Sequence record: PX969468.1
Reading direction: 5' to 3' (one strand)
Length of the DNA: 64,000 bases
From: a phage
Shown here: piece after piece, positions 34,264 to 46,070 of the stretch
How the letters are laid out: every line of letters begins with the position of its first letter
Numbering within the stretch: the first letter of the stretch is position 1
Translations under genes and position numbers: made by a program
The notes under the pieces: generated by a model
What the model was told of the DNA's origin: nothing
What the model saw: only the letters and a program-made list of their open reading frames with translations
The model's database searches: none

Positions 34264-35757
34264 TTACTTAGCGTACTCGATTAATTCCACAGTTTTCCCA
34301 AAGCTCGGAATATAATTTTTATTATACCCTTCGGTGAGAACCCATAGAGTATCGTACTTTTTCCACTTGTTGTCAACAGCCTTTTGTTCAAAGTTATGCT
34401 CAAAGTATAGGTCGGTCAGGACGATGACATCTTTTGCATTCGGTATGTTAGCATCCAGATACTCGAACACGCAAGCAGCTGTTGTGCCCCATGTTGAGTG
34501 GACCTCATAGTTGATCATCTCGTCTATGTTGCCGCGAGTGTATACTTTAACCTCTCCAACCTCAGTTGACCAACAGAACATTGTAACCTTAAACTCTTTA
34601 TACAGATTGCACAATCCTGTGATTTCATTGAACATTTTCTTTAAAGTTCTTTGAGAGATCGAGCCAGAAACGTCCAAAGCCACCACAATATCTATAGTGT
34701 TTTCCGGATTACGACCAGGAACAATAACGTGTTGGTTCTTGTTTATAGCTCCGACTTTTCGCATTGTGCTGGTCAAAGACCCAGATCGGCGACCAGGTTT
34801 TCTGTAGGTCAGTTCGGCCTTTCTTTTAGACAACATACGCTGCTTGATGATGTCTATATAATTGATTACAGGCTTACCTCTATTCTTGACAAACTCACGA
34901 ACCGCCTCAGGGCAACGACCTCCGGAAGCTTGCATTGCTGCCTCAAGCATGTCACCAGAGTCCTGCATGGCCTGATCTTTATCAGATTGGCTGATTACAG
35001 GTTGTGGCTGATCATACCCCATCGCCTTTCCAAGATCATCACTAGTGCCACCGTTACCACTCATGTGATCGTCGGTTTGTCGTTTATCTCCTTGAGAGTT
35101 CTCGCCTTTACCGTTCTTACTTTTACCGCTATTCTGATCTCTTTGCTTATCAAGAACCGCATAGACGTTCTCAGCAATCCATCCATGGAACCTCATGTCA
35201 CAGTAGCAACTAGCTAAGAAGCCAAAAGACTTACCTTTTACAAACGTAGTGCTTTTCCCCTTCGGGAAGAAAACACAAGGGGGCTTGCTAAAGTCAACCA
35301 CAAGACCTGTGTTGATAACATGATCACAGGCAATATTGAACAGCTCCGGCTCAAAACTTTTGCCACGGACCAGATGATCACAGATAATATGCCCCACCTC
35401 ATGCGATAGAAGAAATGCCACCTCTTTCACAGATTTTGGGGAATAGAAAACCTCAGCCATCTCAAACTGCTTGTCAGTCAAAGATGCTTTAAGAATGGTT
35501 TTGCGCTCATCCGCCAATCCCATAATGAACTCAGGGCTGTAATAAATGCGTTTATGGTCTGTTGCCATGGTGGAGCACCATGTGTGGTTTTCTACGAACT
35601 GCAACCCTGACAACAGTGTGCCATAAAACGGCAGTTTTTCAAGAAGATACATACGTGCTGCCTGCAGCATTCGCAAGGCGTCATCTTTTTGTGCGGCAAT
35701 GATTTCTGAACTTCTGCTATCCATTAAAACTCCAGAAGGGGCCTTGGCCCCTGTCAT
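34264..35757 (-). CDS. VWA-domain protein with N-terminal putative zinc-metallopeptidase domain (DUF2201-like; MoxR-partner type)
   Basis: HExxH motif (LSHEVGHIICDH); VWA MIDAS motif (IVVALDVSGSIS) and later VIVLTD; TAATG coupling to upstream gene. Confidence 0.65.
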   Translation of the reverse strand: MTGAKAPSGVLMDSRSSEIIAAQKDDALRMLQAARMYLLEKLPFYGTLLSGLQFVENHTWCSTMATDHKRIYYSPEFIMGLADERKTILKASLTDKQFEMAEVFYSPKSVKEVAFLLSHEVGHIICDHLVRGKSFEPELFNIACDHVINTGLVVDFSKPPCVFFPKGKSTTFVKGKSFGFLASCYCDMRFHGWIAENVYAVLDKQRDQNSGKSKNGKGENSQGDKRQTDDHMSGNGGTSDDLGKAMGYDQPQPVISQSDKDQAMQDSGDMLEAAMQASGGRCPEAVREFVKNRGKPVINYIDIIKQRMLSKRKAELTYRKPGRRSGSLTSTMRKVGAINKNQHVIVPGRNPENTIDIVVALDVSGSISQRTLKKMFNEITGLCNLYKEFKVTMFCWSTEVGEVKVYTRGNIDEMINYEVHSTWGTTAACVFEYLDANIPNAKDVIVLTDLYFEHNFEQKAVDNKWKKYDTLWVLTEGYNKNYIPSFGKTVELIEYAK

Positions 35758-36809
35758 TATTTAACGTGCTTGAAAATACCAGCCAACTCGGTCATTGTCA
35801 TGCGGGTGGTCTTCATAAGGTCTGTCATAGCCTTCTCCATAATTGGAGATACTACCATAAAGTTACCTTTGGTGAAACCTTTATTCCAATCGGTCACTAA
35901 TAGTGGTTTAAGTCCGGTCCCGAGACGCTCACCAGTTAAAGCACAACATTTTCGAATATACGTGCTCTTAAACTGACTGAATGACAGATCAACTTTCATA
36001 CCTGCATCGTAGAACGTCTGGCAATAGAAAGTGTAAGCTTTGGCAATCTCAACATCGTCAGGCAGTGCAGGAACCTCTTCTGTAAGCTCTTCTTCGGCCT
36101 CTTGAGGCTCTTTTTCCTCTTCGTGATCCTGTTGCATCATTTCTTCAATCTCTTCTGTTACAGGCTCATTTACGATGTCAGAAATGTGCTTGTTGGCTCC
36201 ACGATTAGCCATGAAGTTTTTAAAATCCTGCATTGGTGACATATCTTCCTCCCATTCTTCGTCAAAGAGTGCTAGTTTATCCTCTTCCGTTCCATATTGC
36301 AAGATGAAATCTTCAAAAGTGTAATCACCTTTCAATTTCTCCATACGCTCTTCGCTCAGGTGGAGCATCATCTGCTGGACAATTTTTCGATCAGTTTTGT
36401 CTTTAATCAAGACTGCGGTCTTTTTATCTACCAGACAGTCCTTTAGAGAGTTGCATCTCAATCCCACCACACAACAATTATCAACAGCATAAGGACCTTC
36501 ATCATCTATCCGCTCTAGGGAGGGGTAGAAAGGATTTCCCAGTCCGTTTTCATCTGTGTGCATGTCGAAAGGTATAAGGGTATAGTCGCACACCCCCTCT
36601 CCTAAAAGTTTTTTACCAAATAGGAGGTATTCTTCCCATGACAGGTTGAACTCTATATCTCGTTTCCGTGCATTATTTTGTTTGCGTCTGTATTTTTTGA
36701 GCAAGCGCTCTAACTCTTCTGGTGTATAATATTTTTCAAGATTCATGAGTTGTCTCTCGTGCTCTGTAAGTGAAGAAATCTTATCAATTGTCTCAACAGA
36801 TGTCAACAT
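35757..36809 (-). CDS. acidic hypothetical protein with two copies of an HNH_3-like motif (Arg in place of first His)
   Basis: PSLERIDDEGPYAVDNCCVVGLRCNSLK and PLLVTDWNKGFTKGNFMVV; long Glu-rich linker; first gene of leftward block. Confidence 0.4.
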   Translation of the reverse strand: MLTSVETIDKISSLTEHERQLMNLEKYYTPEELERLLKKYRRKQNNARKRDIEFNLSWEEYLLFGKKLLGEGVCDYTLIPFDMHTDENGLGNPFYPSLERIDDEGPYAVDNCCVVGLRCNSLKDCLVDKKTAVLIKDKTDRKIVQQMMLHLSEERMEKLKGDYTFEDFILQYGTEEDKLALFDEEWEEDMSPMQDFKNFMANRGANKHISDIVNEPVTEEIEEMMQQDHEEEKEPQEAEEELTEEVPALPDDVEIAKAYTFYCQTFYDAGMKVDLSFSQFKSTYIRKCCALTGERLGTGLKPLLVTDWNKGFTKGNFMVVSPIMEKAMTDLMKTTRMTMTELAGIFKHVK

Positions 36810-36819
36810 CAAAAACGTG

Positions 36820-36848
36820 TTGACTTTACTCTAAATCTCCGATATAGT
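36820..36848 (+). promoter_or_regulatory. sigma70-like promoter TTGACT-N17-TATAGT driving rightward early block
   Basis: ttgact 36820-36825, tatagt 36843-36848, in divergent intergenic region. Confidence 0.5.
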
Positions 36849-36888: not shown

Positions 36889-37788
36889 ATGGCAAATCTT
36901 AACAGTTTTAGTACGCGGTGGAAACAGGACATAACAACCAATCTTTCAGCTGGGGACATCCTTTCTGCAATTTACGAGGCTTTAGATGATAAAGCTACTT
37001 CAAAAGCGGTTTGTACCAACCCACTAATTCCTATAGTGATGAAGGTGATTGAGCGTAGATTGGTATCGGGGTCTGATAAGTGGACATATTTAGATAATGA
37101 AGGACACACCTATTCCAACGGGTATGTCGATATAAAAGTAGAATACGCGGTATCATACCGCCGGAGCGGTTCTGTGACTTTCAACTTTTCTGGAGGTTTT
37201 CGATCTCTGGCAACTTCACCTTTTGTTTCCTCAGAAGAGAAGTTTGAACTTCCGTTCCTTTGGATGATGGCTAACGCGACAGGAAAAACCCCCGTGAGCA
37301 TTCGCGTAAAATACAACTACAACGGGTCCAGTAAGATCTATGCCGAGAGTATCTCAGCAAGTTTTTATTTTGTGATGGGGGATGGAATCCTCAAGCACAT
37401 AAAGATGTGCGATATGCATGATGTTATAAATGAAGTGACTGATAAGAATGTTTTAGTGAAGGACCTCAACAATTTCTATACACCTGGGGACTATTACGTC
37501 AACCGCCCACTGTGCATCTTTAATGCCGCACACCCTTTAGGTGAATACCTGATCGTTAATAGTGACATTGCTAACAACATTTTTGAACTGGCAAGAGTAC
37601 AAAATGAGGTATTGACATCCTGCAAAAGTGGTGATAAATTTACTGATGAAGAGATGGGTGTTTTAGAAATGATGGGGTATAAATGCAGTCTTTGGGTAGA
37701 TGAGGTGTTTAATGACTACATCTACGGACAGGATATTTACCCGTTAAAGAAGTATACTGATACAAGTTTAATTTATGCGGGGATTTGA
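36889..37788 (+). CDS. hypothetical protein
   Basis: 299-aa ORF, first gene of rightward block. Confidence 0.45.
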   Translation: MANLNSFSTRWKQDITTNLSAGDILSAIYEALDDKATSKAVCTNPLIPIVMKVIERRLVSGSDKWTYLDNEGHTYSNGYVDIKVEYAVSYRRSGSVTFNFSGGFRSLATSPFVSSEEKFELPFLWMMANATGKTPVSIRVKYNYNGSSKIYAESISASFYFVMGDGILKHIKMCDMHDVINEVTDKNVLVKDLNNFYTPGDYYVNRPLCIFNAAHPLGEYLIVNSDIANNIFELARVQNEVLTSCKSGDKFTDEEMGVLEMMGYKCSLWVDEVFNDYIYGQDIYPLKKYTDTSLIYAGI

Positions 37789-39079: not shown

Positions 39080-39382
39080 GTGGCAAGGATGCCACTTAAA
39101 AGAGTAATAAACATGTTATACCAGAAACACGAACTTTGTGCAGAAAAAGAGTTAAATTTTGACAAAGTTATCCACAGATATTGTTATGGAAAAACCGGAA
39201 GACAACTAAGAAGATGCACTCCAGCATTCTTTCACCCCAGCAGGCGGCTAAGTCCTGAAGAGGCGACAGCAGAAAGGGTTGCATACAACTGGGAAGTTGT
39301 GTACGATATTGACAGATCCGATGTGACATCTGTTTTGGAAAACTTTGAAAACACTTACACACAAGTAGAGGATTTTTACTAA
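39080..39382 (+). CDS. hypothetical protein
   Basis: 100-aa ORF. Confidence 0.3.
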   Translation: MARMPLKRVINMLYQKHELCAEKELNFDKVIHRYCYGKTGRQLRRCTPAFFHPSRRLSPEEATAERVAYNWEVVYDIDRSDVTSVLENFENTYTQVEDFY

Positions 39383-40566
39383 TGTCAAGAAACGTATTTG
39401 AAAGTGGTCAAATCACTGTCCGTGAGTTGCCAGCTATCATTCAGTTTGCCCAGCGTCATAACCGATCTGTCCTGATTTTAGGACCAATGGGTGTGGGAAA
39501 GAGTCAGGTGATGAAGCAGATCGCTGATAATATGTTCGGTGAGCGAGATGACAACCTGGTTGACGTGCGGCTGTCAGATAAAGATCCTGCCGACTTATCT
39601 GGGCTACCTATCCCTGTAGAAGCTGATGGAACTACACGTACAGTGTTTGCAATTCCAGAATTTTGGCCTGCAGATCCGAACTGGAGCGGAATTATCTTTC
39701 TGGATGAGCTTACTCATGCAGATAACTATCTGCAAAAGGTTGCAATGCAGATTATGCTCGACCACAAGTGCGGCACCTATGCATTCCCTAAAGGCTCTGT
39801 TTTTGTGGCTGCGGGTAACCGTTCTACAGATGGTGCTGTTCTTTCGGCGCTCGAAGCTCCTCTGGCTAACCGCTTTATCATTGTAGAGGTTACAAGCAAT
39901 GCAGAGGTGTTTATTGAGGACTACGCATTCCTCAACGGGGTTCACTCCTCTGTAATTGGGTATCTGAAAAGAGTTCCATCAGCTATTGATAATTATGAGG
40001 CTATGGCTGAGATTAATTGTCCATCTTTTGCCACACCACGATCTTGGGTTGCTGCATCTGACATCTTGCACGATTTTGACAGCGGTATTATTTCTGACGC
40101 TATGGCCCGTGTTCTTCTGCAAGGTGCTATTGGTCACACTGCAGCGGTAGAGATCTGGACCTACCACACCAAGAAACGCAACTTACCGGAAATCGGTCGG
40201 ATTATGGCAGGGGGTTGCAAAGAATACGTAGGTCCTAAACAGCCAGACATCTTGTGGATTCTTGGATCTGAAGGTTGTATCGCTATTCGTAATATGATGG
40301 AAAATGCAAGTATCTCCGACGAAGATCTTGTTAGCTGTGTGGCAAACTTCCTCGATTTCCTTTGGGAAAACTTCAAGGACGAGAACCGAGATTTTGTATT
40401 CTCAGTCTTTATGGCGATGATGAAACCTAATGCCTTAGGAAATGCCTTGCTTATCGGTAAAGGTCGTGACAAGATTGTTGCTCAGCTGATCAAAGCATAC
40501 CCAAACCTGATGAAGATTGTAAAAGAGTTTGGTGAAGAGTTTAGCGCCATTTTGGCTAAAGCTTAA
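39382..40566 (+). CDS. AAA+ ATPase, MoxR/RavA-like
   Basis: Walker A LILGPMGVGKSQ, Walker B IIFLDELTHA; size and layout of MoxR-class ATPases; VWA partner at 34264..35757. Confidence 0.7.
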   Translation: MSRNVFESGQITVRELPAIIQFAQRHNRSVLILGPMGVGKSQVMKQIADNMFGERDDNLVDVRLSDKDPADLSGLPIPVEADGTTRTVFAIPEFWPADPNWSGIIFLDELTHADNYLQKVAMQIMLDHKCGTYAFPKGSVFVAAGNRSTDGAVLSALEAPLANRFIIVEVTSNAEVFIEDYAFLNGVHSSVIGYLKRVPSAIDNYEAMAEINCPSFATPRSWVAASDILHDFDSGIISDAMARVLLQGAIGHTAAVEIWTYHTKKRNLPEIGRIMAGGCKEYVGPKQPDILWILGSEGCIAIRNMMENASISDEDLVSCVANFLDFLWENFKDENRDFVFSVFMAMMKPNALGNALLIGKGRDKIVAQLIKAYPNLMKIVKEFGEEFSAILAKA

Positions 40567-40575
40567 GGAGGTTGT

Positions 40576-40956
40576 ATGGCTAAAGTAGGTAAGCGGGGAA
40601 ACTACCTGGTGGTATTGACCGAGGAGCCGGAGAAGGAGTACGAATGCAGCTCCACTTGCGTGATCGATATCCGAGAAAAAGATGTAGATGAAATCTGGTT
40701 TAAAATATTGGACGCTTGCGATAGCAGTGATTATTTCTTCATCTATGTCAACGATAAGGCTGGGTTCTTCCATGACGACGGAGAGTTGCCGTATGAAATC
40801 TATGAACTTGTAGAGGCTTGCCATCGTGGAGATGCGGAGTTGTTTGGCCTACGGCTGAAAAGCGGTAAATTCTTCTATCAAGATGAGTGCATGAATCTTC
40901 ATAACTTTGTAGAGGGAACTTGCAACGATGGAGAGATTTTGGCACACTACGATTAA
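40576..40956 (+). CDS. hypothetical protein
   Basis: 126-aa ORF with RBS (aaggagg). Confidence 0.4.
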   Translation: MAKVGKRGNYLVVLTEEPEKEYECSSTCVIDIREKDVDEIWFKILDACDSSDYFFIYVNDKAGFFHDDGELPYEIYELVEACHRGDAELFGLRLKSGKFFYQDECMNLHNFVEGTCNDGEILAHYD

Positions 40957-40968
40957 TTTCTAATACCA

Positions 40969-40994
40969 CCCCGCTTCGGCGGGGATTTTCTATT
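40969..40994 (+). terminator. rho-independent terminator (UUCG tetraloop)
   Basis: ccccgc-ttcg-gcgggg then attttctattt. Confidence 0.65.
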
Positions 40995-41004
40995 TGGAGT
41001 TATT

Positions 41005-41505
41005 GTGAAAATTAAGATCTTTGCTATTATTTTGAGCGCATTTTTATCGCTGCCTGTTGTTGCAGCACCAAAACAAAAAGTATATCATACTTGCAAGCCC
41101 TCAGATACTAAGGAAAACATTTTGGCATGTAATATCTACAGGGAAGCTAGAGGGGATGGCACGATGGGTATGCTGGCATCTGGGTTTGCCACATTAAACA
41201 GGAAATCTCACCCTAAATACCCAGACACTATAAGAAAGATTGTCTACCAACCTAACCAGTTTTCGTGGACAAACCACGGCAAAACTTTTAAGGTGACAGA
41301 AAAAGATTCATGGGATCACGCTAAAAGTCTTGCAAAGATGCTTCTAAAGGTCTATAATAACAACCATGTTGCATACATGGCTATGGACATAACAGGTGGA
41401 GCAACACACTACCATACAACCAAAGTACTACCGAAATGGGCAAAAAAGATGCAGAGGACAGCTCAATTCGGGAGCCATATCTACTACAAGGAGCGCAATA
41501 AATGA
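41005..41505 (+). CDS. secreted cell-wall hydrolase, SleB/Hydrolase_2 family
   Basis: GTG start with RBS; N-terminal Sec-type signal peptide MKIKIFAIILSAFLSLPVVAAP; motifs NIYREARGD...ATLNRKSHPKYPDTIRKIVYQPNQFSW. Confidence 0.7.
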   Translation: MKIKIFAIILSAFLSLPVVAAPKQKVYHTCKPSDTKENILACNIYREARGDGTMGMLASGFATLNRKSHPKYPDTIRKIVYQPNQFSWTNHGKTFKVTEKDSWDHAKSLAKMLLKVYNNNHVAYMAMDITGGATHYHTTKVLPKWAKKMQRTAQFGSHIYYKERNK

Positions 41506-43484
41506 TTGTAAACAGTAATGAAACTAAAGCAGTGCTAACCGGAAATATGGAGGTCACCAGGGGCTCAATTTCTCTTAACAAAGAGACTTTTGGGCTAATC
41601 ATTAAAGGGATTTACGAAGATAAGGTGCTGGCAAGCTGCCGTGAACCAATCTTCAATGCTGTGGACTCTCATGTTGAGTCTGGACGGGGTGATGTGCCGA
41701 TCATTATTCACTCTCCTACAGACCTTGAACCATACTTCTTTGTGCAGGACGTTGGATTGGGCATGTCAGAAGAGATGGTCCGCAACACTTTCATGAACCT
41801 CGGTGAGTCAACCAAGCGCAACAGCAACGCTCTGGTTGGCAATAAAGGTGTTGGTTCAAAGGCTCCGTTCAGCATGGTGGACACTTTCGATGTTATCAGT
41901 GTGCACAATGGTATTGAAAGCACATATCTATTGTTCTTGGATCAGGGTATCCCAAACGTTACCAAGATCCGCGAGCGGAAGACTGAAGAGCACAACGGGG
42001 TAAAAGTTCAGTTCCATGTTAAGAAAGAGCATGTTCTGAAATATCGCACTGCTATTGCGTCATGCCTACGCTATGCAAAGTTTCCGTTTACCGTTACCGA
42101 CCCTATGACCAGTAAGATGCTGGAAGGTGACAAGGTTGAGGCGCAGTATCGCTACGAGAAAGATGGTTGGAAAATGACTATCCTGAAAGGTTATACCAGC
42201 TCTGATGAGAGCCGTGTGGTGATGGGACACCAACCTTACCGCTCTAAGTTTCTGGAAACATTGACAGACTACCCTGCAATCTGTGTAGAGATCCCTATCG
42301 GGGATTGCAATATTAACCCTGGGCGCGAATGGACCATAGAGGGGCACGACGATGGTGGATTCCAGGATCGCCTGGAGGCCTTTGTCAAAGAAGGTATACG
42401 TCTTCGTGGGGCAGAAGTTGTTGCAGAACTGGAGACGGCAAAAACCTCCGCAGAAGCACGTGAAATGATGAAGAATAGTGGGGTGTTCGGACACATCTTC
42501 GGCAAAAACTTTATGTGGAACCGTTGGGAAGAAACAGGACTTGGAGACTTAGGCGATTGTGAAATTTTCGCTGGCGGCTTAAATAAAGGCCGCATAGGCT
42601 ATGCTCGTTATGGAAAGTCAGAGTTCTTACGGGGAGTCTATTTAGTATTTAACGACGGAGACGGCAAATATAACCGAAATAAGTGTAACTACTTAAGCGA
42701 GATCACCGGACGCAACGTTTTCTATTGCCGTAACACGGATCTGGTGGAAGAGTTTAAAGAAGCGGCACACCACCCGTTCTTTGCAGATACAGTCAAATTG
42801 TTATCAGAGCTCCCTCGCCGACCTGTCAAGAAAGGTGAAACAAAAACTCGTTATGAGCCAGGCTATTGGGTTAAAAAACTTGAGAAGGATGGTTACTTCC
42901 GCCGTGAGCGTATTACTAAGGCAGAGTTCCGGAAGATTAAACACTGCATCCCTTATGAGGGTGATATCCAACGTGGAAGTTGTTGGCTGGGGCAGATGAG
43001 TAACATCTACCAGCAAGATTATGACCGTGTACGTGCGGCACTTCAGATTCCTGAAGGTGAAGATCTGTATCTGGTATCTGAATCTCGTCTGCTTTGGACT
43101 GATCCTGATTGCCAGTATGTTACAGAGAAGAATGTGGAGCACCTGTTGAAAGAGGATGCTTGGAAATTCTTACTGACCCGTGCAGCAAATGAGACTTCTT
43201 ATGACAGCCTGTATAGACAATTAGGGAAAATTATTCCCATGCAAGATTTTGGAAATTATCGGCCACATTTCCACAAGTGGGAAGGTAACACCACGTGGAA
43301 GCACAGTGAGCTAAATCATCGTGCCAAAATCTTAATCGCCAACCGAGTTAAATGCGGGAAGGCCTATATTGCAAGATTGGAAAAGAAATACCCACTTTTG
43401 AAGCATGTAGGCTTGAAATATTGGGACACTCCTGCTATGATTGAATACCGTGAACTGATCGATACAAAGAATAACATCAAATAA
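41502..43484 (+). CDS. rIIA: rIIA-like protein (GHKL ATPase N-terminal domain)
   Basis: N-terminus alignable with T4 rIIA as recalled: REPIFNAVDSH, DVGLGMS, GNKGVGSKAPFSMVDTFDVISVHNG; followed by rIIB homologue. Confidence 0.8.
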   Translation: MIVNSNETKAVLTGNMEVTRGSISLNKETFGLIIKGIYEDKVLASCREPIFNAVDSHVESGRGDVPIIIHSPTDLEPYFFVQDVGLGMSEEMVRNTFMNLGESTKRNSNALVGNKGVGSKAPFSMVDTFDVISVHNGIESTYLLFLDQGIPNVTKIRERKTEEHNGVKVQFHVKKEHVLKYRTAIASCLRYAKFPFTVTDPMTSKMLEGDKVEAQYRYEKDGWKMTILKGYTSSDESRVVMGHQPYRSKFLETLTDYPAICVEIPIGDCNINPGREWTIEGHDDGGFQDRLEAFVKEGIRLRGAEVVAELETAKTSAEAREMMKNSGVFGHIFGKNFMWNRWEETGLGDLGDCEIFAGGLNKGRIGYARYGKSEFLRGVYLVFNDGDGKYNRNKCNYLSEITGRNVFYCRNTDLVEEFKEAAHHPFFADTVKLLSELPRRPVKKGETKTRYEPGYWVKKLEKDGYFRRERITKAEFRKIKHCIPYEGDIQRGSCWLGQMSNIYQQDYDRVRAALQIPEGEDLYLVSESRLLWTDPDCQYVTEKNVEHLLKEDAWKFLLTRAANETSYDSLYRQLGKIIPMQDFGNYRPHFHKWEGNTTWKHSELNHRAKILIANRVKCGKAYIARLEKKYPLLKHVGLKYWDTPAMIEYRELIDTKNNIK

Positions 43485-43494
43485 GGAGACCAAG

Positions 43495-44700
43495 ATGATT
43501 TTCATCTACGAACATTTCAAAACTCGTAAAGAAGCACGCGACCGCCGTGCAGAACTTGAGAAGAAAGGTTTCACATGTGCCATTGAGAAAGGTGACACAA
43601 CCTGGACACTGGCAGTGGGTGCCCCAGAATTGTTCGATCCTGACCGTGACAGCGTCTGCTACACCCGTGAGGATTTTGAAACCCGTGAAGAGGCCCGTCT
43701 ATTTCGATATGGGCTGGAAGATAACGGTAAGTACGCCATGATCTTAGACTTAGGCGAAGGTTCCGTTAAACGTTGGGGCGTGATATACCCACTGTGTGTT
43801 GTTCACGGTGTGGGGTTTACTGGGGTAGCAATCAAGTCAGAAGAACCTTTAGTAGAAGTCAAAGATCCGGTGCTGGAAGTGGTGAGCAGTGTGTCTCAGC
43901 AACAGACTCGAAGCATCGAGCCTTTGGTAGTTATTTGCGGGGAACTCCTCCAGATCACCTGCAACGAAGGAATTTTTGAAATTCGCCGCAGCGAAAGTGA
44001 GGAAGTTTACCAGAAAGTCTTCGACCATATCTCTGTTCAGGAATATGATGAGGCAATTGGTGAAATCCTTGTCTGGCTGGAACGCAAGAATGAGTTCACC
44101 ACACTTGCAGACAACCTGATCATGAAAGATGGTAAGCTCTACTACTACGGTGTAGAGATGCGATCCACCATTGCAAAGAAAATTGAGAAAGATTATGCAG
44201 ACGGAACGCTGGATGACCGCTATGTGAAATTCCTCGTTCGCCTGCTACGCAATCCTTCTGCAAAATCTGTAAACATGCTCTACGATTTTATGCAGGCCAA
44301 TGATATTCAGATTGCAGAAGATGGTCGAATCATTTGCTACAAAGGGGTTCAGTTTAACGGCAGCAAGTGGGTGGATTGTCACAGTGGTAAAGTTCCACAA
44401 TACCAGGGTGCTTTTGTATCCATGCCTCGTAACTTTGTAGAGGATGATCCGGAAGCTGCGTGCTCCTATGGCTTACACTGCGCCAGCAAAGAGTATGCAA
44501 AGAGCTACGGCACTGTAATGACTGTTATGGTTGATCCTGCAGATGTGGTTAGTGTGCCATACCAACACAATAGCGCTAAGTGCCGTGCATGCCGCTATGA
44601 GATTGTGGTAGCTCCGGAAGCACGCAAAGATGGAGACCCTATTGAATATGTAGTTGATCGTGACGGTAACACTATCGACATTCTTTACGAGGAGGCGTAA
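43495..44700 (+). CDS. rIIB: rIIB-like protein
   Basis: C-terminal half aligns with T4 rIIB as recalled (LYDFMQANDIQIAEDG; DCHSG; SMPRNFVEDD; GLHCASKEYAKSYG; DVVSVPYQHNSAKCRACRYEIV). Confidence 0.85.
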   Translation: MIFIYEHFKTRKEARDRRAELEKKGFTCAIEKGDTTWTLAVGAPELFDPDRDSVCYTREDFETREEARLFRYGLEDNGKYAMILDLGEGSVKRWGVIYPLCVVHGVGFTGVAIKSEEPLVEVKDPVLEVVSSVSQQQTRSIEPLVVICGELLQITCNEGIFEIRRSESEEVYQKVFDHISVQEYDEAIGEILVWLERKNEFTTLADNLIMKDGKLYYYGVEMRSTIAKKIEKDYADGTLDDRYVKFLVRLLRNPSAKSVNMLYDFMQANDIQIAEDGRIICYKGVQFNGSKWVDCHSGKVPQYQGAFVSMPRNFVEDDPEAACSYGLHCASKEYAKSYGTVMTVMVDPADVVSVPYQHNSAKCRACRYEIVVAPEARKDGDPIEYVVDRDGNTIDILYEEA

Positions 44701-46070
44701 TGGAAAAAGGGCAGTATGATGTAGGCACAGATGCTGCCCTCGTTGCAATCATGAGCGGTGAGAATGTCTTCGTTTCAGGACCCGCAGGTTGTGGGAAGAC
44801 GTACCTCATCAACATGATCCAGTCAATGTATGGAGACTCTTGCATAACGGTTGCCCCGACAGGGGTAGCCGCTTTAAACGTTAATGGAGCAACAGCACAC
44901 CGAACCTTCGATCTTGCAGCAGGTGTGAGCATGGAGTCAGACTGGACCGCAATAAGGGAAAAAACAGCAAAGCCTTTGAAAAGCAAGGCATTTACCATCC
45001 TAATTATCGATGAAATCTCTATGATCCGTGCTGATAAGTTTATAGAGATGGATAGGAAACTCCGCTTCCTTCGAAAAAATGACAAACCTTTCGGGGGCAT
45101 ACAGGTCATATTGTTTGGCGATTTTTACCAGGCACCTCCTGTTGTCTCTTCTATGGAGAAGGAAGCCTACTTCAACTTCTACCATACGGACCTATGTTGC
45201 TATACCGAATCTTGGAAAGAGCTTGACCTCCACAACATAGCCCTAATAGATCAGTTCCGACAGGAGTCTATTCGATTCGCCACAATGCTCAACTGTGTTC
45301 GTGAGGGTCGTCGCATAAAAGAGGTTGTAGCAGAGCTTAATGCTCGCTGTTACAAAGGTGGTGTACCAACAGACGCTCTCACAATTTGCGCCACCAACAA
45401 ACAAGCAGAGGAAGTGAACAGAAGGTTCTATGATGCCATCAACGCCCCAGAGAAGGTATACACTGGTGAAATGAAGGGTAAGTTTCCCTCCACCTTGCCA
45501 GTTGAGCAGGAGATGAAGTTGAAAATTGGCATGAAAGTTATGATAACCGCCAACGATGTTGACCCGACGCACAAAGTACCTTATTATGTTAACGGAACAC
45601 GTGCCACGATTGTTAAATTTAAGAACAAGGCAGTGGTGGTAGAGCTTGAAGATGGAACACAGGTTGACATAGAGCAGAGGTTGTGGGAGAATAACGAGTA
45701 TAAGCCATCTCAAAGATACAACATTGCAGAAAGGAAGATGGAGAAGTTTATAGAGAGGGTAGTGATTGGATCATACAAGCAACTTCCTCTGAAATCTGGG
45801 TATGCCGTAACATCTCATAAAAGTCAAGGACTTACGCTAGATTGTTACAACCTGGACCTTGGAAAGAACGGAGCTTTCTCTCCTGGGATGACGTATGTTG
45901 CTTTGAGTCGAGTTAAGACAATACAAGGAATAAACTTGTTGCGTCCACTAAGAGAAGTTGACATTATTGTTGACCCGCGAGTCGTAGAGTTTTACAATAC
46001 AACATTCCCTGACTTAGACAAAATTGTCAGGAAAGATTTTGAAACCAGAGCAGAAGAGGGGGACGTATGA
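44700..46070 (+). CDS. dda: SF1B DNA helicase, Dda/PIF1/RecD-like
   Basis: Walker A GPAGCGKT; IIDEISMI; ILFGDFYQAPPV; C-terminal VTSHKSQGLTLD and TYVALSRVK. Confidence 0.8.
   Translation: MEKGQYDVGTDAALVAIMSGENVFVSGPAGCGKTYLINMIQSMYGDSCITVAPTGVAALNVNGATAHRTFDLAAGVSMESDWTAIREKTAKPLKSKAFTILIIDEISMIRADKFIEMDRKLRFLRKNDKPFGGIQVILFGDFYQAPPVVSSMEKEAYFNFYHTDLCCYTESWKELDLHNIALIDQFRQESIRFATMLNCVREGRRIKEVVAELNARCYKGGVPTDALTICATNKQAEEVNRRFYDAINAPEKVYTGEMKGKFPSTLPVEQEMKLKIGMKVMITANDVDPTHKVPYYVNGTRATIVKFKNKAVVVELEDGTQVDIEQRLWENNEYKPSQRYNIAERKMEKFIERVVIGSYKQLPLKSGYAVTSHKSQGLTLDCYNLDLGKNGAFSPGMTYVALSRVKTIQGINLLRPLREVDIIVDPRVVEFYNTTFPDLDKIVRKDFETRAEEGDV

Follow-up and report, generated by a model that had tools for sequence, protein, structure and literature searches.

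The 64,000-nucleotide stretch of Vequintavirus DNA analyzed here (PX969468.1, hereafter the window) carries a gene for a SleB-like cell wall hydrolase precursor between a MoxR-type ATPase region and rIIA, and we regard its product, with moderate confidence, as an exported, signal-cleaved, single-domain SleB-type lytic transglycosylase that is probably expressed at a low level from an early unit and is accessory to a lambda-R-type endolysin, a holin, and spanins. The observation is a re-discovery of a published annotation: Table S3 of the rV5 genome paper lists gene 2 as a “cell wall hydrolase” of 166 aa with a pI of 10.0 and PF07486, and the signal peptide, the SleB-like domain, and the noncassette position are already in print for the subfamily, with the CB7 paper describing SleB-like homologs with a signal peptide in all Vequintavirinae genera.

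The hydrolase gene and its product

A preliminary description, made from the letters of the window, had placed an ORF at exactly 41005..41505 on the + strand, and this gene is real. Its features are as follows.

40996..40999, + strand: Shine-Dalgarno sequence GGAG, 5 nt 5' of the GTG start (direct sequence reading)
41005..41505, + strand: SleB-like (Hydrolase_2) cell wall hydrolase precursor gene (ORF, Pfam, PHROG, orthology to rV5 gene 2)
41005..41064, + strand: predicted cleavable Sec (SPase I) signal peptide, residues 1 to 20, MKIKIFAIILSAFLSLPVVA, cut before APKQK (rule-based)
41065..41502, + strand: mature catalytic domain, residues 21 to 166 (146 aa, 16.9 kDa, pI 9.9), SleB-type lytic transglycosylase fold
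41092..41130, + strand: codons of Cys30 (41092-41094) and Cys42 (41128-41130), invariant among Vequintavirinae-type homologs
41143..41145, + strand: GAA codon of Glu47, predicted catalytic acid/base in a YREARGD motif, aligned with the Glu of SleB YGESRGE
41502..41505, + strand: ATGA overlap of the rIIA ATG and the hydrolase TGA, shared with navn, slur16, and rV5 (direct sequence reading)

The 166 codons, read from a GTG start, specify a 166-aa precursor of ≈19.0 kDa with a pI of ≈9.95. GTG is the only sensible start because the next in-frame Met is residue 54, past the catalytic motif, and the 501-nt gene is annotated identically in relatives. A hydrophobic 73-aa antisense ORF with an ATG start that crosses the hydrolase/rIIA junction (41381-41602, − strand) is unannotated in relatives and was set aside as probably spurious, a by-product of the coding strand.

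The SleB/Hydrolase_2 motifs pointed out in the preliminary description are borne out by a match to Pfam PF07486 (Hydrolase_2) of 68.3 bits, where the gathering cutoff is 27 (E 9.5e-19), over positions 2-100 of the 100-position profile and by a match to PHROG 938, labeled “endolysin,” at E 4.5e-27. The fold prediction is confident, and both the SleB-type catalytic fold and the conserved catalytic glutamate expected of a Hydrolase_2 member are present; Glu47 is invariant in a 16-sequence family alignment drawn from several phage families, and the QFSW, DxTxG, and PxW motifs are conserved as well. Hydrolase_2 is the only domain found, no separate peptidoglycan-binding domain being detected in the window protein, and ≈25 residues separate the signal peptide from the catalytic helix. 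Judged by its fold and its one catalytic Glu, this single-domain Hydrolase_2 enzyme is most likely a lytic transglycosylase, and the conserved Cys pair probably forms a periplasmic Cys30–Cys42 disulfide. The catalytic domain of Bacillus SleB (PDB 4F55 and 4FET), a germination-specific lytic transglycosylase, is only 21 to 25% identical to the window protein, which, unlike SleB, has neither an N-terminal PG_binding_1 domain nor a sporulation context. Because it scores 47.8 bits against the spore_SleB equivalog TIGR02869 (NCBIfam), below the cutoff of 236.5, and lacks the N-terminal peptidoglycan-binding domain, the window protein is not an ortholog of SleB proper.

The 6-kb region around the gene is 97 to 98% identical to slur16, navn, PDX, and phiWec189, with rV5 likewise close, and the gene itself is present in 116 phage records at 95 to 99.6% nucleotide identity. 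The orthologs in rV5 (gene 2), slur16, navn, and PDX have the same 166 aa, the same neighbors (MoxR-like ATPase, 126-aa ORF, rIIA, rIIB, helicase), and the same ATGA; the window protein differs from those of navn and slur16 by a single residue, L142 in place of R142. Codon 142 (41428-41430), which specifies Leu in the window, Arg in navn and slur16, and Lys in more distant homologs, adjoins the invariant Pro143 and lies near Trp145. Vequintavirus copies show 3 to 9 synonymous versus 0 to 1 nonsynonymous differences and, because synonymous differences so far exceed nonsynonymous ones, we conclude that the gene is maintained by purifying selection. That the protein is a catalytically dead or decaying remnant without function is barely credible: the unique L142 substitution at a position where relatives have R or K, beside an invariant Pro, would fit such a reading, but the ORF is intact in all 116 records, synonymous changes predominate, every signature residue is present, and the fold is confidently predicted. 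As a separate matter, at least 16 records labeled “Campylobacter phage” (MG065644-MG065690, host Campylobacter jejuni) match E. coli rV5-like phages at 96.7 to 98.1% identity along 6 kb, which suggests that this deposit includes mislabeled or contaminating coliphage genomes.

A predicted cleavable signal peptide

We scored the N-terminus by the classical n-, h-, and c-region rules, and the Sec signal peptide claimed in the preliminary description is supported by a tripartite segment that ends in a predicted SPase I site. The n-region is MKIK, with a net charge of +2; the h-region, IFAIILSAFLSL, has 12 residues and a Kyte-Doolittle mean of 2.95; and the c-region, VVA, provides a V-x-A site with cleavage before Ala21 and a Pro at −4. 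An alternative cleavage site between AA and P was ruled out, as Pro would occupy +1. Residues 1 to 20 are modeled with a pLDDT of ≈54. On the strength of this signal-like N-terminus, the window protein would be exported and cleaved.

The segment is widespread in the family, with 61 of 80 related viral-contig loci passing a strict automated test; in most of the remaining loci it is visible and was missed through the start-codon choice used, and only two loci have their start right at the catalytic helix. By this survey of predicted N-termini, the signal peptide is a hallmark of the family. Two papers independently predict a signal peptide for the Certrevirus homologs, and the literature describes the Certrevirus, Seunavirus, and Mydovirus homologs as SleB-like proteins with a signal peptide.

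Several homologs from Seunavirus, Mydovirus, and Certrevirus carry an extra Cys inside the hydrophobic N-terminus (residue 12 in L005, L013, and L006; residue 5 in P0004), within a segment rich in Gly/Ala/Ser/Thr, and also keep the two catalytic-domain Cys; the window protein is without the extra Cys. This arrangement loosely recalls disulfide-caged SAR endolysins such as P1 Lyz. That the N-terminus stays uncleaved as a SAR domain and keeps the enzyme inactive on the inner membrane until depolarization is nonetheless very improbable for the window protein. Some homologs do have an h-region Gly/Ala/Ser/Thr fraction of 0.53 to 0.60 together with the extra Cys and thereby loosely resemble P1 Lyz; the h-region of the window protein, by comparison, spans only ≈12 residues and does not look SAR-like, with a Gly/Ala/Ser/Thr fraction of 0.35; it combines a Kyte-Doolittle mean of 2.95 with the lack of an extra Cys, and the Pro and V-x-A that come after it are of the kind found in SPase I substrates. 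Moreover, T4 RI, a textbook SAR prediction, proved to have a cleavable signal peptide (PMC8385771).

We also considered and rejected a virion-associated lysin, since gp2 is not in the listed proteome and a protein bearing a Sec signal could not join virions that assemble in the cytoplasm. Gp2 is absent from the virion protein list in the main text of the rV5 paper, which is the source for its nonvirion status, a search of the rV5 supplementary files (virion proteome) for gp2 having given no match.

Genomic neighborhood and transcription

The surroundings of the hydrolase gene in the window comprise the following.

39382-40566: MoxR-like AAA ATPase, upstream of the hydrolase gene
40576-40956: 126-aa acidic ORF between the ATPase and hydrolase genes
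40969..40994, + strand: intrinsic-terminator-like hairpin CCCCGC-TTCG-GCGGGG with a T-rich tail (hairpin 40969-40984, six G-C pairs, tetraloop)
41502-43484, + strand: rIIA (PHROG 612, E 3.8e-124; context only)
43495-44700, + strand: rIIB (PHROG 609, E 7.4e-62; context only)
44700-46070: Dda/PIF1-type helicase, downstream of rIIB

The preliminary description had set the gene between the MoxR ATPase and rIIA, in a replication/rII module rather than a lysis cassette, with no holin or spanin nearby. Both neighbors are confirmed, with the correction that the 126-aa ORF intervenes on the ATPase side; the location in an early/replication transcription unit is supported, since the rV5 genome paper puts gene 2 in the unit transcribed as “genes 10-1-238-164”; and, as had been stated, neither a small membrane ORF nor a spanin adjoins the hydrolase gene in the window.

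The hairpin at 40969-40984, which ends ≈10 nt 5' of the hydrolase ribosome-binding site, is the strongest terminator-like site within 36.5-47.5 kb and, judged by its sequence, probably attenuates transcription into the sleB-like, rIIA, and rIIB genes. No sigma-70-like promoter is found between the hairpin and the hydrolase start, so that the three genes would depend on read-through or on an unrecognized phage promoter. At the other end of the gene, the ATGA overlap with rIIA is a layout typical of translational coupling.

Two further observations concern this region. A back-to-back pair of promoter-like sites at 36778-36848, TTGACT-17-TATAGT (+) and TTGACA-17-TAAGAT (−), separates the divergent genes at 35757-36812 (−) and 36889-37788 (+) and agrees with the bidirectional promoters described for the interval that separates rV5 genes 10 and 11. 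Residues 8 to 42 of rIIB give a subthreshold match to SPOR (peptidoglycan-binding; E 0.0014, 19.3 bits versus a cutoff of 21), and two SPOR-like, β-α-β-β-like repeats are apparent by eye in the N-terminus of this protein, which has no export signal.

Canonical lysis genes in near-identical genomes

The window corresponds approximately to 13.5-77.5 kb of slur16, and the canonical lysis genes of its relatives lie outside that interval.

slur16 104705-105175: lambda-R-type endolysin, 156 aa (1AM7, lambda lysozyme, E 1.5e-56; PHROG 90, E 4.7e-56)
slur16 93959-94641: i-spanin (N-terminal TM) and o-spanin (lipobox), an Rz/Rz1 pair beside terminase
127594-127821 in the record of a 97-98% identical relative: holin candidate, 75 aa, 2-TM (two hydrophobic segments; charged C-terminus)

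The slur16 endolysin has no hydrophobic N-terminus or signal sequence. It and the spanins were identified by PHROGs and by a PDB sequence search, Pfam giving no match to the endolysin and spanins of the relative. In the relatives the spanins adjoin terminase, and the holin candidate lies far away. These assignments agree with the literature, in which the rV5 genome paper names Gp89 an “obvious lysin” and gp129 a putative holin, of which our 75-aa candidate is probably the equivalent, and the CB7 paper places the spanin pair of CB7, rV5, and PVP-SE1 beside terminase, outside any cassette. The lambda-R-type endolysin is found in 110 phage records and the spanins in 119, essentially the same set as the 116 that carry the SleB-like gene. 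Directly 3' of the slur16 endolysin lies a gene for a 68-aa protein with an N-terminal hydrophobic, lipobox-like segment (105239-105445; L004 5239-5445), which belongs to PHROG 4641 (function unknown) and could be a lysis accessory, for example, a lipoprotein or an antiholin.

Because near-identical relatives encode a canonical endolysin, spanins, and a holin candidate, the SleB-like enzyme is most likely accessory rather than the sole endolysin. The idea of a secreted endolysin, put forward in the preliminary description, survives as far as a Sec-signal-bearing SleB/Hydrolase_2 enzyme is concerned and is weakened otherwise, the canonical system elsewhere that the description had named as a counterargument being largely borne out in relatives. 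The opposite assignment makes the hydrolase the principal endolysin, Sec-exported and held inactive in the periplasm until holin or pinholin depolarization, with the lambda-R-type enzyme redundant. PHROG files the family under “endolysin,” and Hydrolase_2 is, according to the literature, a common catalytic domain among lysins of phages that infect Gram-negative bacteria; both are in keeping with such a role. We consider it decidedly unlikely, however, given that a lambda lysozyme homolog, spanins, and a separate holin candidate are conserved genus-wide, and that the gene sits in an early/replication unit.

Precedents for export exist. Lys44 of fOg44 and P1 Lyz are Sec-exported or SAR endolysins that act as the sole endolysin of their phages and are encoded in lysis cassettes. 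What they have in common with the window protein is the idea of delivering a muralytic enzyme to the wall by Sec ahead of holin action, but their catalytic folds are unrelated to its own; moreover, Vequintavirus has a cytoplasmic lambda-type endolysin in addition, and no holin adjoins the hydrolase gene. Compared with a canonical holin-dependent endolysin, the window protein stands apart in its export-signal-like N-terminus and in the lack of a cassette position.

Distribution across phage lineages

We surveyed the family by tblastn against phage records and viral contigs and found a SleB-like gene in 1254 phage records; a word-indexed protein search gave 11 relatives. The lineages sampled were Seunavirus SSE121, Certrevirus PcCB7V, phi92-like ESCO9, T5-like AKFV33, Nankokuvirus RP13, Menderavirus YB07, Sugarlandvirus, and Moazamivirus 7-11, and in every one of them the neighbors are early, replication, or nucleotide-metabolism genes rather than a lysis cassette. 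The conventional endolysins that the literature gives for these lineages are diverse: M15C next to a holin in T5-like Salmonella phages, M15C in Septuagintavirus, Phage_lysozyme in Phapecoctavirus, and a T5-type peptidase in CB7. It is mainly because a conserved exported enzyme accompanies a variable main endolysin across lineages that we argue for an accessory role.

The closest of the other homologs, CB7_83, CR3_087, and P7_95 of Certrevirus, SSE121 gp087, and KB57_245, are 44 to 54% identical to the window protein and share with it a signal-like N-terminus, the Cys pair, the catalytic Glu, and the early-region position; they differ in that a small holin-like membrane ORF follows the gene and in h-regions with more Ala/Ser/Thr and one additional Cys, and Certrevirus, unlike the window, has no rIIA/rIIB. 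T5.083 and the T5-like “SleB” proteins (e.g., AKFV33 orf081) are ≈35 to 40% identical, likewise single-domain Hydrolase_2 proteins with a short signal-like N-terminus that are encoded in the early region, separately from the real endolysin–holin pair of the phage; they differ in having no rII neighbors and another Cys pattern. A signal-less homolog in Salmonella phage 7-11 was examined as a true lysis-cassette case and rejected, the three small ORFs downstream being without a transmembrane segment. A 2-TM protein is encoded two genes upstream of this homolog.

The same distribution is compatible with a nonlytic early periplasmic role, be it superinfection exclusion via wall remodeling, envelope conditioning, or action on a special substrate such as denuded glycan strands, with little or no part in final lysis. 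An early, replication, or nucleotide-metabolism location in each lineage sampled, a predicted signal peptide as hallmark, and retention across unrelated phage groups that each have a different main endolysin all favor such a role, and SleB proper is known to recognize a peptide-free muramic derivative. We nevertheless judge this role unlikely: no data point to a specific nonlytic function, the toxicity of a homolog on expression suggests a general muralytic activity, and the holin-like partner in sister genera, described below, points to lysis.

The adjacency to rIIA and rIIB, which the preliminary description found suggestive, is stable only in the closest clade. Both genes lie downstream of the SleB-like gene only among homologs of at least 48% identity (L014-L027 and L032, of 80 viral loci), a clade of Vequintavirus, Seunavirus, and Mydovirus-like phages, and rII is found near the SleB-like gene in none of ≈58 more distant viral loci. 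It is absent from this position in Certrevirus, phi92-like and T5-like phages, Nankokuvirus, and others; in Certrevirus-like loci the SleB-like gene is followed directly by the helicase. Since it is confined to the closest clade, rII adjacency is a lineage-specific synteny and not a property of the family. The ATGA overlap with rIIA is narrower still, being found only in Vequintavirus; the corresponding gap in SSE121 is 190 bp.

A holin-like ORF downstream of the hydrolase gene in sister genera

The 190-bp gap in SSE121 (NC_027351.1) contains an unannotated ORF (L005 4549-4710) whose 53 aa include two hydrophobic segments and end in a very basic C-terminus, and KB57 has a 51-aa counterpart (L013 4536-4691; 43% identity, E 9e-11). 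ORFs of 51 to 77 aa with two hydrophobic segments are found 3' of the hydrolase gene in ≈15 of the 17 non-Vequintavirus loci of the subfamily-like clade, where they start within ≈25 bp of the hydrolase stop codon or overlap it; by sequence they belong to several unrelated types, and the C-terminus is often basic. Loci with a small 2-TM ORF are L005, L013, L016-L024, L026-L030, L032, and L037; the window, L014 and L015 (both Vequintavirus), and L025 have none, and a search of the window, slur16, and navn for a counterpart gave nothing better than E 0.4. Among distant loci, a small 2-TM ORF is present in 2 of ≈45, no more common than in a control (4% at other gene ends). Because their position is conserved and their sequences are diverse, as is typical of holins, the sister-clade ORFs look holin-like; the CB7 authors had proposed holin identity for the Certrevirus downstream ORF, and the occurrence of such ORFs across the sister genera is a small new observation of the present analysis.

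These ORFs bear on the status of the hydrolase as principal endolysin, which their frequency in the sister clade, the like proposal for Certrevirus, and the toxicity of CB7_83 in E. coli would all favor. The CB7 paper reports this toxicity on expression as data not shown, and literature searches for biochemical, localization, or expression-timing data on phage SleB-like proteins returned nothing specific, nor any experiment on export, cleavage, bond specificity, or a lysis phenotype for the window protein or a close homolog. Weighing against that status, neither the window nor any Vequintavirus copy examined has the holin-like partner, and every lineage examined keeps another canonical endolysin. 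The SleB-like enzyme may act as a true lysis effector in the sister genera, and the dedicated partner may have been lost in Vequintavirus.

A model for the hydrolase and its implications

In the accessory model that we favor, the hydrolase gene would belong to the early/replication transcription unit (rV5 genes 10-1-238-164), and the upstream terminator and the GTG start would probably keep its expression low. The precursor, made with a Sec signal, would be exported to the periplasm and cut after residue 20, and the mature enzyme, probably stabilized by the Cys30–Cys42 disulfide, would use Glu47 as its single catalytic acid/base, most likely in a lytic transglycosylase attack on the glycan strands of the host wall. 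As an accessory murein hydrolase alongside the canonical lysis set encoded elsewhere, with no replacement of that set, the enzyme would most likely weaken the sacculus in advance or contribute to its dissolution, making for rapid lysis after holin triggering.

Several points count against this model. An active muralytic enzyme that is made early and exported should risk premature lysis. Bacillus SleB requires muramic-δ-lactam, which is missing from E. coli walls. The downstream holin-like gene of the sister genera could make the enzyme the primary lysis effector there. Finally, the canonical lysis genes on which the model draws are those of relatives 97 to 98% identical to the window, rather than of the window itself.

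A more speculative proposal, to which we attach little probability, is that Vequintavirinae have a second early module for envelope or lysis control, distinct from the canonical set and made up of the SleB-like gene, the positionally conserved holin-like gene, and rIIA/rIIB; Vequintavirus would have lost the small gene and translationally coupled the hydrolase to rIIA, and the rII proteins may control the enzyme. If true, this would give the membrane-associated rII proteins a concrete biochemical partner.

As the re-discovery of an annotated gene, the finding itself is ordinary and of little consequence. Its residual value lies in the pattern that unrelated large virulent phages of Gram-negative bacteria, among them Vequintavirinae, phi92-like and T5-like phages, Nankokuvirus, and others, keep a predicted exported SleB-type enzyme beside a conventional endolysin. 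The question at stake is whether phages routinely preload the periplasm with a second wall-cutting enzyme, one that may be regulated by rII or by small downstream membrane proteins.
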